In this document: one piece after another, positions 9,539 through 14,928 of the stretch
How positions within the stretch are numbered: the first letter of the stretch is position 1
How the letters are laid out: every line of letters begins with the position of its first letter
Virus record (IMG/VR): IMGVR_UViG_3300050821_003995
Coordinates: 1 to 64,000 of that record
Origin: a virus
Direction: 5' to 3' (one strand)
Length of the DNA stretch: 64,000 nucleotides
Made by a program: the position numbers and the translations under genes
Notes under the pieces: generated by a model
What the model was told of the DNA's origin: nothing
What the model saw: only the letters and a program-made list of their open reading frames with translations
The model's database searches: none

Positions 9539-10600
9539 CTAAGCTCTCAAAGCTTTTTCAATCGGCATCTTAGCCCGGTTGATCCTATTTTTCAAGGTGC
9601 TTAAGGGCAGCTTATACTCCAGCGCCCAAGCAGTCATGGATTGGGTTTTGCCAAAAGCCGTAAACAACTTATATCCAATTCGTGGGCCTGCTTTGCCTTT
9701 TTTGAGTGGCCCGGCAAACAAAGCCTTCTCAAGCGGCATGTTATACTTCAGAACACGTTGACGTATGGTTGAACGTGTGAGGCCAAGTTCTTCAGCCCAT
9801 TCTACCAATGTAAGTGATTTACCAGCAAATGTGTATTTTGGGGCTCTGGATTTCACTTTACGCCTTTTGAGAAGTTTGCCATCGCCGGCATAACGGGAAT
9901 AGCTTGGGGCAAATAGTTCGTCACCTATCATCCCGGCGTGAAAACGCCTTCTCAAAAGATCACGTGGCATTCCCTTTTCATCAGCCCAGTCAATCAAGAG
10001 CTTCTTCACTCCATTATGGGCTATGTAAAGATTATTCCTTAAGTTCCTTTGCTGCTGACCCGCCGTAGCCCACCGACAATTTGTTGGTTCATAATTACCA
10101 TGTTTGTCAGGGAACCGATCAAGGCTGGTGCCTTCGGGGCGTTCACCCATATCATCAATGAAACGCTCAAAACTATTTTTCCAACGCCTACAAACAACAA
10201 CTCCTTTACCACCATAACGGTGATAGTCGGGGGAATTCTTATTCGTACAGCGTTGCAACATGGATTCCCAAGATTTGAAGGTTCTGGTTCCAGTCATCCC
10301 ATGCTTATAATAATTGGCAATCGCGCTGGGGTGACTATTGAGAAGTTTGTCCTTAAACTTCTTTATAAACCGATCCTCAGTTTCCCACATCTTGACGTGT
10401 GTACGACAAATCCTGAAAAGCACAATGTCGAAGTTTGCTTCACCGTATTTGTCCCAGCACTGCTGCAACTTCTTATGGATGCTCTTGCCGGCACGCAAAT
10501 ATACCAAGTGACGCCGTGTTCTGTTTTCCCAGTTTATTCCCGAACCAACATAAATCTCACCCGTAACTAAACAACGAATACCATACACACCTGCTTGCAT
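9539..10600 (-). CDS. free-standing homing endonuclease: GIY-YIG + HNH-type domain + 3 HTH-like repeats
   Basis: GVYGI...YVGS...R...E; then SWESMLQRC...YGGKGV...SLDRFPD...YEPTNCRWAT; repeats HNGVKKLLIDWA / FAGKSLTLVEWA / FGKTQSMTAWA. Confidence 0.85.
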   Translation of the reverse strand: MQAGVYGIRCLVTGEIYVGSGINWENRTRRHLVYLRAGKSIHKKLQQCWDKYGEANFDIVLFRICRTHVKMWETEDRFIKKFKDKLLNSHPSAIANYYKHGMTGTRTFKSWESMLQRCTNKNSPDYHRYGGKGVVVCRRWKNSFERFIDDMGERPEGTSLDRFPDKHGNYEPTNCRWATAGQQQRNLRNNLYIAHNGVKKLLIDWADEKGMPRDLLRRRFHAGMIGDELFAPSYSRYAGDGKLLKRRKVKSRAPKYTFAGKSLTLVEWAEELGLTRSTIRQRVLKYNMPLEKALFAGPLKKGKAGPRIGYKLFTAFGKTQSMTAWALEYKLPLSTLKNRINRAKMPIEKALRA

Positions 10601-10667
10601 TTGAAGGCCCCTGCCGGTTGATTGGGCTAAGAACTTAACCCATTTCACCGGCAGGGTCAACTTTTCA

Positions 10668-13351
10668 TTACGCTGTCAACACACCCTGGAGAACAGTTTT
10701 GTTATCGTTTTGGCTCTTTATCCAAAACTTCTGCATGTTGCCATGCAGCTCGGACTATATCATCACCATTTGCGGTGCCGGGGGCTCGTGGCTGGGTTAT
10801 TCTTTCGTCACCAGCTAGTCTCTAGACCTTCCGCAGCCCTGGGCTTCACCCTACGTCTGCGGCTTGGTACGGGATTGTCTCATTTAAGAGGTTTTCCCCG
10901 TTTCACCCGGTTTTCCTCAGTTTAGTGGTAGGTCTGAGGGCGCGTCTCATTACACGCATTGGACAGGGTCATATTTCCAGCCCAACCAATTAATCTTACC
11001 ATGGCGTCTTGATTTATCGAGAAGCGGTCTGGATCAAGAGGAACCATGTTACGCCTCGCATGGGGTCTCCAATGTAGATATTTGGTATTGAGCATGTAGC
11101 CGGTGGTCGAAGGAGCACCGCCTACTGCACTTGTTGAAGATGACACCTGGGGTGGCAGCGGATCGCTGCTGAAGCCCTGGAAGCCACCATCCAGCACAAC
11201 GTCGCTGTTCAGGTACTTGAGAACCTGAAAGCCAGCCTCAGCCATGTCACCCGGCACTGCCTCAGGGCCAATCCGCTGAATGGATTGGAGGGCCTGGAGG
11301 TAGTACCTGTACATCACGTTATCCATGATGATCAGGTCAGGGTAGTCACGGCCACGGACGAGCTGCACCCACAGCGCGTTCATTTGGCTGATGATGTTTG
11401 CCGCACCCAGCGTGACGCCGCCGTTGGTGTTGGCGGACCACGCCTGATTGCGCCAGAACGTCCACTGTGCACGGTCAATACCTCCAACTGTACCGGAGGT
11501 TGGTGTGCTGGCCACCAAGAGCTGGAGGCCACCCACCGAGTTGGTCACCGTGCCGTCTCCGTAAACTCCCTGGCTCAATCCGTTCATGAACGTATCTTCC
11601 AGATATGTTAGCGTCCCTTTGTGAGGGACGCCGGGGATTTTAACATCCCCCTGCATATTCCTATGCAGCTCGGAGCACATCTTCCCTTCCGGGGTTGGCT
11701 CATGCTCTCTACGCGCGCCCAGAGCAAACTTGCTCTTGCTTGGTTCGGGATTGTCCTTCCGCGTTCCATTGGAACCGGGCATCGGATGTTCCCCGACTTC
11801 GCCAACATTCTGACTACGGCCTTTTAACTCCGTAGCAGGCCCAGCGCTTTATGCGCAAGCGTTCATGATGCGGGATTCGAGAAGGTCAATGATGGCCTCC
11901 TCACCAGAGTTTTGTAACTCCTCAAGGCCGGAGATGGATACCGCGACAGCCGCTTGGCGGATTGGGTACTCCGCCGCAGAGAACACTTGGGAAGGCGCGA
12001 TATTAAGCGTCTGGTACCCAGAATCGATATGTTATTTGTCGACCTGTTTATGATCGGCTTCTGCATGTCACCATGCAGTCCAGACTATCTCTTCCCTTTC
12101 GGGTTGGGCGCTCGTGGACCCGTTACTGCTTTCGCTCGGGGTCTAGTCGTTACACCTTCTGCACCCCTCCTATTCCTAAAAATAGTACGTGTGCAGCTTG
12201 GCTCGGTATTTACTCCACCACCTACCAGCGGTACTGTGGAGTGGTTCACCGACTTCACCCAAATTTCACTAGGAAGCCAATGCCAGCAAACCTGAGTACA
12301 CCATCGATCCGGCCTTGGAGAAAGACTGGATTTGAGTTCCCATGCACAATCTGCGGTAAGATTGTTTACCGCAGGGCATCACAAATAGCCCGTGGTATAG
12401 TCAAAACCTGCGGTGCTCCTGAATGCAAAAGCGCTTCAATGAGCGGTGATAAGAACCCTTTTTGGGGTAAATCACACCCACCAGAAGTACGCGACCGGAT
12501 CAAGACTGGCCGCGCTCTTGCAGTAAAACACAAACGCAAATCAGGACCGCCTAAAACCAACAAAGTCAGAATAGAACGTAAGAAAGCTGTCCGACTTCGT
12601 TGGTTTTCAAACCGGGATGTGATGCTGGCCGGTCTTAAGCCATCAGAAAAGGACAAAACCCGTGAGCAAAAGCGCTACAGATATTGCTTCACTCGATGGC
12701 AACGTGAGAACTGGACCGGTGACAAGTGTGCTTGGTGTGGCACTACGGATGATCTTGTACTTGACCACATCCTTCCAGTTGTATGTGGGGGCAAAAACAA
12801 ACGTACAAACGCACAAACACTTTGCCGACCGTGCAACTTATGGAAGATGGTCTACGTTGACCGCCCGCTGTATCTTGCTGGTTTAGGCCTCGAAGGAGGC
12901 TAGGGGTTTAACCCCACCACTGATATGTCTGATTATCGGCATAATTCAATTCCTGAACTATGGTCCGACCACCAGAAAACGTCTTCAGGTTCCTATGTTA
13001 GCCGCAGTGGCTCTTTATCCACTGCCTCAATGGCTTCACTTCACCATTGTTCGGACTATCTCTTCACCTTTCGGCGCTCCGCGCTCGTGGGTAGGTAGCT
13101 TTCACCCCCACCTAGTCTCTACACCTTCCATGCCCCTGAGCCTTGTTGGGCCTACGTGCATGGCTTGGCTCGGTATTAGCATCTCAGCCTTCACCGAATT
13201 CACGGAGTTACGTGGCAACCTAGATACAACTTTTACCACGCCTTGTGAGCCTCAGCAACGCTGCGTTGTTTCGGCTCATGTTATCAGCGAGTTCCCCGGT
13301 ACGATTTCGGAGAGTCGTAGTTACGATCTCCGATAAGTTTGGGAAGGCCAT
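10668..13351 (-). CDS. major capsid protein, 343 aa, join(13351-13235,12991-12916,12024-11858,11599-10954,10693-10668)
   Basis: Removing 4 introns gives one 1032-nt frame: MAFPNLSEIVTTTLRNRTGELADN...RRG/NLKTFSGG...YQW/YSGYQTL...RIMNA/EDTFMNG...TLSNA/FLQGVLTA; follows the scaffold gene. Confidence 0.93.
10694..10953 (-). mobile_element. group I intron 4 of MCP (260 nt, no ORF)
   Basis: P1 GCGU|GU:ACGCGC with U-G; P AAACGGGGAA, Q AAUCCCGUAC, R UAGAGACUA, S AUGAUAUAGUC; restores SNA-FLQG. Confidence 0.92.
11600..11857 (-). mobile_element. group I intron 3 of MCP (258 nt, no ORF, variant P7)
   Basis: U/G boundaries restore MNA-EDTF; P AAGUCGGGGAA, Q AAUCCCGAAC, P3 GUUGGC/GCCAAC, P7 GAGCA/UGCUC. 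Confidence 0.88.
12025..12915 (-). mobile_element. group I intron 2 of MCP (891 nt) carrying an antisense HNH gene
   Basis: U/G boundaries restore WYSGY; core AAGUCGGUGAA, AAUACCGAG, GUAACGACUA, AAGAGAUAGUC in about 12025-12270. Confidence 0.9.
12280..12903 (+). CDS. intron-borne HNH homing endonuclease (Zn-finger + NUMOD3-like + HNH), antisense to the intron
   Basis: CTICG..CGAPEC; GDKNPFWGKSH; CAWCG...DHILPVVCGGKN..TNAQTLCRPCN; AGGAAG before ATG 12280. Confidence 0.85.
   Translation: MPANLSTPSIRPWRKTGFEFPCTICGKIVYRRASQIARGIVKTCGAPECKSASMSGDKNPFWGKSHPPEVRDRIKTGRALAVKHKRKSGPPKTNKVRIERKKAVRLRWFSNRDVMLAGLKPSEKDKTREQKRYRYCFTRWQRENWTGDKCAWCGTTDDLVLDHILPVVCGGKNKRTNAQTLCRPCNLWKMVYVDRPLYLAGLGLEGG
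12992..13234 (-). mobile_element. group I intron 1 of MCP (243 nt, no ORF)
   Basis: Exon ends in U, intron ends in G; P1 CGUGGU:GCCACG with U-G; P10 AGGUU:AACCU; P AAUUCGGUGAA, Q AAUACCGAG, R GUAGAGACUA, S AAGAGAUAGUC. Confidence 0.93.
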
Positions 13352-13638: not shown

Positions 13639-14928
13639 TTATACACGCCCCGCCCGCTCAGCGACTTCGCGCTGCGCATCTTCAAGGGATTCACGCACGG
13701 ACTTGCCACGCTTCTGGTTCTTGGGCGCAGCGCCATTGGGCGCACCCGGTGCGCTGATGGGGATGCTACCTGACGCCTTGCGCGCAGCTTCCAGCTTCGT
13801 TCGTTGTGCGTCCTTTTCGGCCTGTGCCGCAGCAGCCTTGGTGGCCGCTTCGGCGTCAACCATGGCCTTCTGGGCTTTGGCGCGCACGGCCGGGTCGGCA
13901 TACACCGCCATATCGTAAGCTTTGTCCAAATCAGCATTGCCATTGGGCAACGGTGGCACCACGGCCGGTTCGCCGTTTGGCCCAGGTGACAGGAACTTCG
14001 CCATGAGGCCGCGCACTTCACCGTAAAATGGCTTGTCCTTGGACCACATGCCCAGCATTTCTTCGGTCTTCTGCATCGATTGCTGCTGGACCGTGGTGGC
14101 AAGCTGGTTGATGCCTTGACCCACCGGGGCAATGATCGAATCGATGTATGCCTTGACGGCAGGATCAAGCTGACCGTTCGGTTGACCCTGCGGGGCACCC
14201 TGTTGCTGCTGTTGAGCCTGCGGGTTCTGCACCATGTGGGCCAACAGCTTGACCGGGTCGATGCCGTAGCTCTGCGCCAGCGCGGCGAACACACCCTCGG
14301 GGGCTTTGCCAGCTTTCAAGCCCGCTGCTTCGCGGGTCAGTGCATCCATCCAGCCAAAGAGCTGCTTGACGGCAGCGGCAGGGGTGATCTTGTGATGCTG
14401 GATGGCCCCCAAGTAGGGCTGGATGGCACCATCAAGTTCGGCGTAGCCCTTCTTCAACTGCTCAACACCGGCCGCCATGTCGGTTTCGCGCTTGGCAACG
14501 GCAGCCTGTACGGCCGGGGGCACCTTGGCCCACTCAGCCTTGGCCTCTTTGGGCCAACCCTCAGGGGCAGCTATTTGCTGTTGTTCCTGCGGCTTCGGCT
14601 CTTGGCCTTCCTGCTCCCCCGCTTCAGGGTCCGGCGCTAGCCCTTCCTGACGGGCGCGGCTTTGCTGCTGACCTTTCTTGGGTTCGGGCTGAGCCTTGCG
14701 AGCTTTATTGGCAGCGCCCTCAAGCTGCTTGCGAAGCTTGCTGCGTCCACTACCTGGTCCTTCCGGCTGCTGTTCCTGCGGTTCCGGCTCCGCGCCCTCA
14801 ACTTCGCCACCCGTGTCGGCTGGCGGCGGGGCAGCCCCACCCGGCTCGGCGCCGGTATCAGCGCCCGCACCGGCACCTGTCTCGGGGGCATAGCAAGGAA
14901 GGGGACCGAATGTTCGCACCAACATCAC
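13639..14928 (-). CDS. capsid scaffolding protein
   Basis: Acidic disordered N-terminus, APEGW..EW motif, LDKAYDMAVYADP; lies between portal and MCP. Confidence 0.8.
   Translation of the reverse strand: MMLVRTFGPLPCYAPETGAGAGADTGAEPGGAAPPPADTGGEVEGAEPEPQEQQPEGPGSGRSKLRKQLEGAANKARKAQPEPKKGQQQSRARQEGLAPDPEAGEQEGQEPKPQEQQQIAAPEGWPKEAKAEWAKVPPAVQAAVAKRETDMAAGVEQLKKGYAELDGAIQPYLGAIQHHKITPAAAVKQLFGWMDALTREAAGLKAGKAPEGVFAALAQSYGIDPVKLLAHMVQNPQAQQQQQGAPQGQPNGQLDPAVKAYIDSIIAPVGQGINQLATTVQQQSMQKTEEMLGMWSKDKPFYGEVRGLMAKFLSPGPNGEPAVVPPLPNGNADLDKAYDMAVYADPAVRAKAQKAMVDAEAATKAAAAQAEKDAQRTKLEAARKASGSIPISAPGAPNGAAPKNQKRGKSVRESLEDAQREVAERAGRV

Follow-up and report, generated by a model that had tools for sequence, protein, structure and literature searches.

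The major capsid gene of an uncultured tailed bacteriophage, carried on the minus strand of IMG/VR virus record IMGVR_UViG_3300050821_003995, is divided into five exons by four group I introns (I1 to I4, Table 1). The record is 95,021 bp long with a CheckV completeness of 100%, and the window analysed here is its first 64 kb (positions 1 to 64,000). It is considered about 90% probable that the sole capsid gene of this phage has been split by four selfish, mobile group I introns, all of which are required to splice. The exons, of 117, 76, 167, 646 and 26 nucleotides (nt), sum to 1032 nt and form one frame of 343 amino acids (aa) closed by a single terminal stop; the introns, of 243, 891, 258 and 260 nt, have a G+C fraction of 0.50-0.56. 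If the introns are left in place, the capsid reading frame reaches a stop at codon 43. A first-pass annotation of the sequence had proposed this five-exon frame, and its arithmetic proved exact.

The boundaries are defined by relatives that lack the introns. A scan of IMG/VR and GTDB genomes yielded 83 related loci (labelled L0xx). In about 35 close relatives (62-89% protein identity) the entire 343-aa protein is found by tblastn as one uninterrupted 1029-nt segment that runs contiguously across all four junctions, and the nearest relatives at the nucleotide level have clean empty sites. A purpose-written protein-to-DNA spliced aligner, which allows split codons and imposes no splice rule, was applied with the protein of intron-free L013 as reference. 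It returned four introns of exactly the lengths given above. Its cuts were exact for I2 and I4, and off by 2 nt for I1 and by 1 nt for I3. The alternative cuts at I1 and I3 encode an identical protein and only the one that leaves U at the end of the exon and G at the end of the intron fits a group I intron. When junction shifts of up to 6 nt were scored, this U...G solution coincided with the coordinates of the first-pass annotation for all four introns, with U and G in place in four of four cases and with the same junction peptides (RRG/NLK, QW/YSG, MNA/EDT and SNA/FLQ). One relative, L064, was left out because its spliced alignment gave implausible small 'introns' around a single large insert; this insert of about 750 nt (L064:4119-4953, capsid 53% identical) lies near aa 291, close to the sites at nt 866-869 of the coding sequence (CDS) in the main clade.

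The joined product is an Mx8-type major capsid protein, probably with the HK97 fold. Exon 4 alone matches PHROG 9953 (phrog_9953, 'major head protein') with an E-value of 5.8e-53 at profile positions 125-320 of 329, which is the position expected if exons 1-3 supply the first 120 residues. Annotated major capsid genes were found by tblastn in Bradyrhizobium phage ppBjS10J-1, Stenotrophomonas phage BUCT555 and Myxococcus phages Mx8 and Mx9. The joined protein is 51-58% identical to the ppBjS10J-1, BUCT555 and Mx8 capsids over about 315-320 aa, gap-free at every junction. Even the short peptide completed by exon 5, FLQGVLTA, agrees with the C-terminus FLQGVLT of the Bradyrhizobium phage capsid and with the uninterrupted relatives. 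Pfam has no family for this protein and a PDB sequence search gave no match. An AlphaFold2 model of L013, an uninterrupted relative with 89% identity, was of low confidence (mean pLDDT 52.5, pTM 0.56), so the fold matches are weak support: the top 50 Foldseek matches were all HK97-fold capsid or encapsulin shell proteins, nearly all with a probability of at least 0.87, and had TM-scores of only 0.23-0.45. A second capsid gene was looked for across the 95-kb genome and none was found; the split gene is the only copy.

That the four inserts are group I introns is supported by homology, Rfam, covariation and guide-sequence pairing. The first-pass annotation had read P/Q/R/S cores in all four and had pointed to covariance models as the means of checking them. 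Such a scan served for three introns. RF00028, for which Rfam sets a gathering score of 50 bits, matches I4 (51 bits), I2 (44.3 bits, E 2.7e-9) and I1 (32.6-36.8 bits, E 9e-6 to 3e-9), each match spanning the full model, with E-values of 3e-11 to 9e-6 overall. It failed for I3, which has no Rfam match at E up to 1 when either the region or the whole window is searched; the core of this intron was recognised by other means. Profile hidden Markov models were built from the relatives' introns alone, with those of the window excluded, and the whole 95-kb genome was searched with them. The profiles match the genome at the four introns and nowhere else, cover the cores nearly full length, and separate two types. 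The type A profile matches I4 (E 1e-54), I2 (E 3e-41) and I1 (E 1e-20), and the type B profile matches I3 (E 3e-48). Cross-type matches are weak and tie the two types to a common core.

The two types differ in architecture. Type A introns carry a single 25-35-nt hairpin-forming insert between P7 and P3', the position of P7.1/P7.2 in subgroup IA2; type B has none. A hairpin between P7 and P3' is characteristic of subgroup IA introns, and the T4 introns in td, nrdB and sunY are phage examples of subgroup IA2. In both this hairpin and the full-model alignment, type A resembles RF00028 and subgroup IA, unlike type B. For type B, I3 was aligned with 11 related introns over P2, P3, P4, P6a, P7 (as a pseudoknot), P8 and P9, 41 pairs in all. 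In this alignment 94.9% of the cells are paired, versus 30-42% when the partners are slid by 1-3 columns. Changes on both sides occur in 26 of the 41 pairs, and none of 500 shuffles reached the observed values. P3 is 100% paired, with covariation in five of its six pairs. Covariation thus supports the core helices of I3, including the P3/P7 pseudoknot, and those of type A are supported by the full-length RF00028 alignments and the family profiles. Introns 72-77% identical to I3 (93% over a shorter 55-nt match) occupy different sites of the capsid gene in other phages. Examples of type B are window 11600-11857 (-), L010:5728-5998, L052:5744-5998, L011:2653-2904 and L050:6510-6779, among others; their P7, GAGCAU/GUGCUC, is changed in sequence in a compensatory manner. 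With RF00028, I3 and the L050 intron s869 go unmatched and two relatives score 15-33 bits. Surveys that rely on this model will undercount phage introns. Inteins were rejected as an explanation of the inserts (stop codons, RNA cores), as were group II introns (no match; U...G boundaries and group I cores).

From these structures each intron would be expected to excise itself from the late mRNA in the usual manner. The intron would fold, and a guide near its 5' end would pair with the end of the upstream exon, the terminal U standing opposite a G (helix P1). Free guanosine bound in P7 would attack at the P1 splice site, and the released exon would then attack directly after the terminal G of the intron. 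Repeated at all four introns, this would join the five exons and give the 343-aa capsid protein.

The guides proposed for this scheme can be recognised in three of the four introns (a slash marks the splice site). In I1 the exon end GCGUGGU pairs over 7 bp with the guide GCCACGU, located 19 nt into the intron. A U.G pair stands at the splice site, and the guide is kept at the same site in L051 and L052. In I4, GCGU/GU pairs with ACGCGC (guide GCGC; 4+2 bp, including two intron-side pairs), followed by a P2 hairpin. P1 of I3 has 8 bp with one bulge and places exon GCU opposite guide GGC. All three P1 helices are present in unconstrained minimum-energy folds. Across the 59 introns found in the family, described below, exon-side guide pairing averages 5.31 bp with the cognate exon versus 3.96 ± 0.14 with non-cognate exons (maximum 4.42 in 500 permutations). 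Type B guides track their targets, CCU/ with GGG and GCU/ with GGC. Type B sites occur only after C-U, mostly CCU or GCU, and type A sites after G/A-U. A U...G solution is available for 59 of 59 family introns, within about 2.4 near-best placements each. A shared UAACA shortly before the terminal G, which the first-pass annotation had noticed, is indeed present in all four window introns at 4-6 nt from that G. It occurs in the last 22 nt of 42 of the 59 family introns (4-8 nt before the terminal G) versus 1.1% of other 22-nt windows in the same introns.

Splicing of all four introns would be obligatory for a viable phage, because the gene is the only one for capsid in a record rated 100% complete and its unspliced frame stops so early. 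The first-pass annotation had put forward four obligatory splicing events, and this argument favours that part of its proposal.

Several observations weigh against the proposed reading. Only I4 exceeds the curated Rfam threshold. No convincing P1 can be drawn for I2, whose 5' end folds into two local hairpins, so that this intron may need help or may splice poorly. Among public sequencing runs, no RNA run contains the capsid locus; splicing is thus deduced rather than observed. The endonuclease gene inside I2, which is described below, has no sigma-70-like promoter by a simple scan, which may not suit the host and is therefore uninformative. Three candidate guides were considered for I2: GCC (intron nt 16), GCUUCC (ahead of the core) and GCCAC (nt 175, within the antisense open reading frame, ORF). 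None is convincing, GCC and GCCAC being weak or possibly due to chance. The lack of a clear P1 in I2, together with the Rfam scores of I1 and I2 below the gathering score, would also fit a decaying gene in a defective phage, in which at least one intron, I2 above all, no longer splices and the genome is non-viable or depends on a helper. This is very improbable. Every exon is intact and free of frameshifts and stops, and at 343 aa the product is exactly as long as the intron-free homologs; the cores match the family profiles nearly full length, and the genome has no second capsid gene. The joined frames are also open in 11 of 12 interrupted relatives, and the two stops in the twelfth, L051, are accounted for by a 51-nt mini-insert.

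These 12 relatives have interrupted capsid genes with 1-9 introns each, and together with the window they hold 59 introns at 29 sites in 13 genomes. The numbers are 9 in L050 and L051, 6 in L041 and L052, 5 in L011 and L053, 4 in L016 and L038, 2 in L007 and L010, at least 2 in L040 (a partial contig) and 1 in L042. All 29 sites fall within CDS nt 17-381 or 866-1006, and conservation around them is higher than at random positions (0.837 versus 0.800 ± 0.011). ORF-less introns of the clade are compact (179-346 nt). When profiles omit the genome under test they still recognise all 9 inserts of L050 and 8 of the 9 inserts of L051. RF00028 finds 7 matches in the L050 record and 5 in the L051 record, the best anywhere scoring 96 bits. 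The matches are confined to the capsid gene in all virus records that were searched, four of which are rated 97-100% complete.

The introns of the window lie at CDS nt 117 (I1), 193 (I2), 360 (I3) and 1006 (I4). Site 117 is also occupied in L051 and L052, site 193 by ORF-less introns in L016, L041 and L050, and site 1006 in five relatives; site 360 is unique to the window. Sites 117, 193 and 1006 thus recur, with related introns, in more distant relatives that were assembled independently from other samples. This recurrence bears on the possibility that the inserts were stitched in by misassembly. The record is a metagenome assembly, and the only public sequencing run that contains the locus, a soil metagenome (DNA), is probably its own source. 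Contigs from that run reproduce the assembly of the locus. One low-likeness joint (11458 to 11952, side 30) and some loose ends among the run contigs most likely come from related introns of other phages, and nothing was drawn from them. Since boundaries that restore the frame to the base and inserts that are each a complete ribozyme also argue against an artefact, its probability is close to nil.

Between close relatives the introns come and go. The closest capsids, L010 (95.3% identical) and L011 (94.4%), share no site with the window, and at the sites used in the window no interruption is present in L057 (95.5% identity over aa 1-222) or in L048 (95.1%, aa 182-343). Presence and absence in near-identical capsids, the many sites, and the endonucleases in and around the gene indicate selfish mobile elements and not a conserved regulatory device. 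The first-pass annotation had suggested that the four splicing events could gate capsid output, that is, that the introns are retained because a series of splicing steps dependent on Mg2+ and GTP adjusts or postpones it. Capsid synthesis logically presupposes that all four introns are spliced, and a 2025 survey of introns in Bastillevirinae speculates that phage introns could work as on-switches at the molecular level (PMC11878797). Nevertheless, gating is improbable as the explanation: the same capsid is made without introns in the roughly 35 close relatives, the number varies from 0 to 9 at sites that differ between 94-95% identical capsids, endonuclease genes lie in and beside the introns, and nothing that regulation would require is conserved.

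Several inserts in relatives depart from the two main types. In L051 the 51-nt insert (L051:4570-4620, at about capsid CDS nt 78) is too short for a catalytic core but has an 8-bp guide, exon ACAUGUCU with GGACAUGU, and U.G at the cut. It resembles a core-less mini-intron, and the site is one that in other phages is filled by a complete intron with an endonuclease gene; no mini-intron occurs in the window. A 346-nt insert in the same phage (L051:4964-5309, capsid site 185) obeys the U...G rule and has UAACA near its end, matches neither the intron profiles nor RF00028, and may be a third intron type. Internal exons can be as short as 22, 22, 33 and 45 nt (L051:6776-7593) or 44-48 nt (L050:6828-7643) between neighbouring ribozymes, so the P1 and P10 pairings of adjacent introns in these phages must draw on the same very short exons.

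Endonuclease genes occur both in and beside the capsid gene. The antisense ORF in I2 is a predicted HNH homing endonuclease; it matches Pfam HNH_5 with 36.7 bits (cutoff 27.5) and HNH with 26.9 bits (cutoff 21.4), and AGGAAG stands directly upstream of its ATG. No homolog of it was found by tblastn in any of the related loci, and in cultured phages only distant HNH domains were found. The second gene, 8 nt downstream of the capsid stop and outside any intron, matches Pfam GIY-YIG with 32.8 bits (cutoff 22.6). Its GIY-YIG domain is N-terminal (aa 23-105), a 200-aa region matches PHROG families labelled HNH endonuclease (phrog_3377, E 1e-58), and a weak sigma-70 region 4-like helix-turn-helix can be discerned. 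The capsid gene is likewise followed downstream by a homolog in L052, L051, L038, L007, L041 and L040. Long introns of the relatives carry their ORFs on the sense strand, with GIY-YIG in 6 of 10 tested. Three endonuclease arrangements are therefore represented in the clade: sense in an intron, antisense in an intron, and free-standing.

Most likely, the three ORF-less introns pass from one co-infecting relative to another when cuts made by endonucleases in the capsid gene or close to it are repaired, and the free-standing GIY-YIG gene is a candidate mobiliser for them. In what Zeng, Bonocora and Shub reportedly described in 2009 as 'collaborative homing', in the psbA gene of cyanophages, free-standing endonucleases are said to mobilise ORF-less introns. 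The arrangement here is similar in that ORF-less group I introns (I1, I3 and I4) adjoin a free-standing endonuclease gene. It differs in that three ORF-less introns and one ORF-containing intron share a gene.

The same endonucleases might serve the phage as weapons. Their targets would be the capsid genes without introns in co-infecting relatives, the introns would shield the carrier by interrupting its own sites, and the pile-up of introns would be an arms race benefiting the phage. Endonuclease genes within the capsid gene or beside it, both in the window and in many relatives, are compatible with this, and in phage PhiPA3 an intron endonuclease is reported to mediate interference between co-infecting phages (PMC11620839). 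At the phase-0 sites 117 and 360, moreover, many intron-free alleles (L057, L013, L017, L032) carry C or G at the wobble position in place of the U required for the U.G pair, which the intron-bearing alleles possess (e.g., GGC/AAT versus GGU/AAC). This difference could reflect co-conversion of exon flanks or resistance to invasion. On the other hand, homologs of the free-standing GIY-YIG gene also stand beside intron-free capsid genes (L024, L022, L019 and L047), so this gene is not tied to introns. A role in competition and defence is possible but rather doubtful as the explanation, although it can coexist with the spread of selfish introns favoured here.

How ORF-less introns reach new sites may be explained in part by their guides. 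The guide requirement is short (3-7 nt) and core type is tied to the target dinucleotide, which leaves room for site-to-site transposition. A tentative extension, with the odds set against it, is that the capsid gene of this clade is a bacteriophage counterpart of that of Faustovirus: two ORF-less ribozyme lineages would multiply from site to site by transposition resembling reverse splicing, and GIY-YIG and HNH endonucleases would then drive the insertions through the population. The major capsid genes of Faustovirus and Kaumoebavirus contain 13-18 group I introns per gene at 25 sites, some with GIY-YIG endonucleases, and the introns show a birth-and-death pattern between strains (PMC7290515). 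Faustovirus is the close parallel, offering nearly the same picture as the phage clade with its 0-9 introns, 29 sites and GIY-YIG ORFs. The two are otherwise distinct. Faustovirus and Kaumoebavirus are giant viruses that infect amoebae, their capsid protein is of the double-jelly-roll kind and their introns measure 343-4635 bp; the window belongs to a tailed bacteriophage with a predicted HK97-type capsid and compact ORF-less introns. If the extension were correct, no gene of a bacterial virus would have a denser reported intron load than this 1-kb gene of soil phages of about 90 kb, with up to nine full introns plus core-less mini-introns, and the clade would be a natural data set on how ORF-less group I introns reach new sites.

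Group I introns of phages are textbook material, usually as single insertions in nucleotide-metabolism genes. The first-pass annotation had likewise placed them mostly one per gene and in DNA-metabolism genes. That background statement calls for correction, as single capsid-gene introns have been published (LittleE, Tuc2009; PMC3706429). The major capsid gene of mycobacteriophage LittleE has one group I-type intron whose splicing was demonstrated by reverse-transcription PCR and N-terminal sequencing (Pope et al. 2013, PMC3706429), and lactococcal phage Tuc2009 is cited in the account of LittleE as having a capsid-gene intron. LittleE resembles the window in its exon ending in U and intron ending in G, in an endonuclease ORF opposite to the capsid strand (as in I2) and in free-standing endonucleases nearby. 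It differs in having a single capsid intron, where the window has four, belonging to two core types, and the relatives of the window have as many as nine. The LittleE ORF was likened to LAGLIDADG/HNH, versus HNH and a downstream GIY-YIG gene in the window. Staphylococcus phage Twort has three group I introns in orf142, a gene now assigned as tail tube (Landthaler and Shub 1999). Twort is thus similar in having several group I introns in one late structural gene with short internal exons, and unlike the window in that it has three introns in a tail tube gene, against four in a capsid gene whose clade has 29 sites and rapid turnover. The 2025 survey of Bastillevirinae listed 45 introns in 37 genes, none of them capsid genes; they were found only in nucleotide-metabolism genes and terminase (PMC11878797). 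Literature searches turned up no report of a many-intron capsid gene in a bacteriophage.

When 50,697 phage records were searched with the DNA of the locus, only 50-75-nt segments of the group I core were matched, in unrelated phages, and no close cultured relative is thus known. These segments (window 10697-10770 and 12054-12105) were matched in Clostridium phages phiCP13O, phiCP34O, CPQ4 and 17DYC, in Lactobacillus phage JCL1032 and in Erwinia phages phiEa1H and phiEa100. In the Clostridium and Lactobacillus phages the matched segments fall within genes whose annotation is tape measure or minor tail protein, and those structural genes therefore probably contain introns too. The introns of JCL1032 have reportedly been published already. 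One relative of the window occurs in a metagenome-assembled genome ('Candidatus Angelobacter', Acidobacteriota); it sits on a 92-kb contig of phage size and so says little about the host. Immediately upstream of the capsid gene lies a 429-aa gene (13642-14928, -) with a high content of Pro, Gln, Ala and Glu. It matches nothing in Pfam or PHROG and is a candidate scaffolding protein by its position.

Table 1. Features of the split capsid gene and its endonuclease genes (positions in the window)
Feature	Position	Strand	Description
Capsid exon 1	13235..13351	-	117 nt, aa 1-39, U at end; aligns with N-terminus of intron-free homologs
Intron 1 (I1)	12992..13234	-	243 nt, type A group I core, without ORF
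Capsid exon 2	12916..12991	-	76 nt, U at end
Intron 2 (I2)	12025..12915	-	891 nt; type A core in 3' third (12061-12334); 5' two thirds hold antisense endonuclease gene
Predicted HNH homing-endonuclease gene	12280..12903	+	207 aa, wholly inside I2, on the strand opposite to I2 and the capsid gene
Capsid exon 3	11858..12024	-	167 nt, U at end
Intron 3 (I3)	11600..11857	-	258 nt, type B group I core; P2, P3, P4, P6a, P7, P8, P9
Capsid exon 4	10954..11599	-	646 nt, aa 121-335, U at end; phrog_9953 match
Intron 4 (I4)	10694..10953	-	260 nt, type A group I core, without ORF
Capsid exon 5	10668..10693	-	26 nt; 8 codons completed plus stop; FLQGVLTA using last base of exon 4
Predicted free-standing GIY-YIG homing-endonuclease gene	9539..10660	-	373 aa, 8 nt downstream of capsid stop

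The mechanism itself would be conventional group I self-splicing by mobile introns, and what is unusual is its degree. The most abundantly made protein of the virion would depend on four ribozymes in this phage, and on up to nine in its relatives. With 59 introns at 29 sites in one small gene, empty sites in near-identical relatives, two ribozyme types and micro-exons of 22 nt, the clade offers a compact natural experiment in intron gain, intron loss, site choice and the efficiency required of serial self-splicing. There is also a practical consequence. Gene callers will break such capsid genes into fragments, which can distort the classification of uncultured phages by their capsids and the estimates of their completeness.

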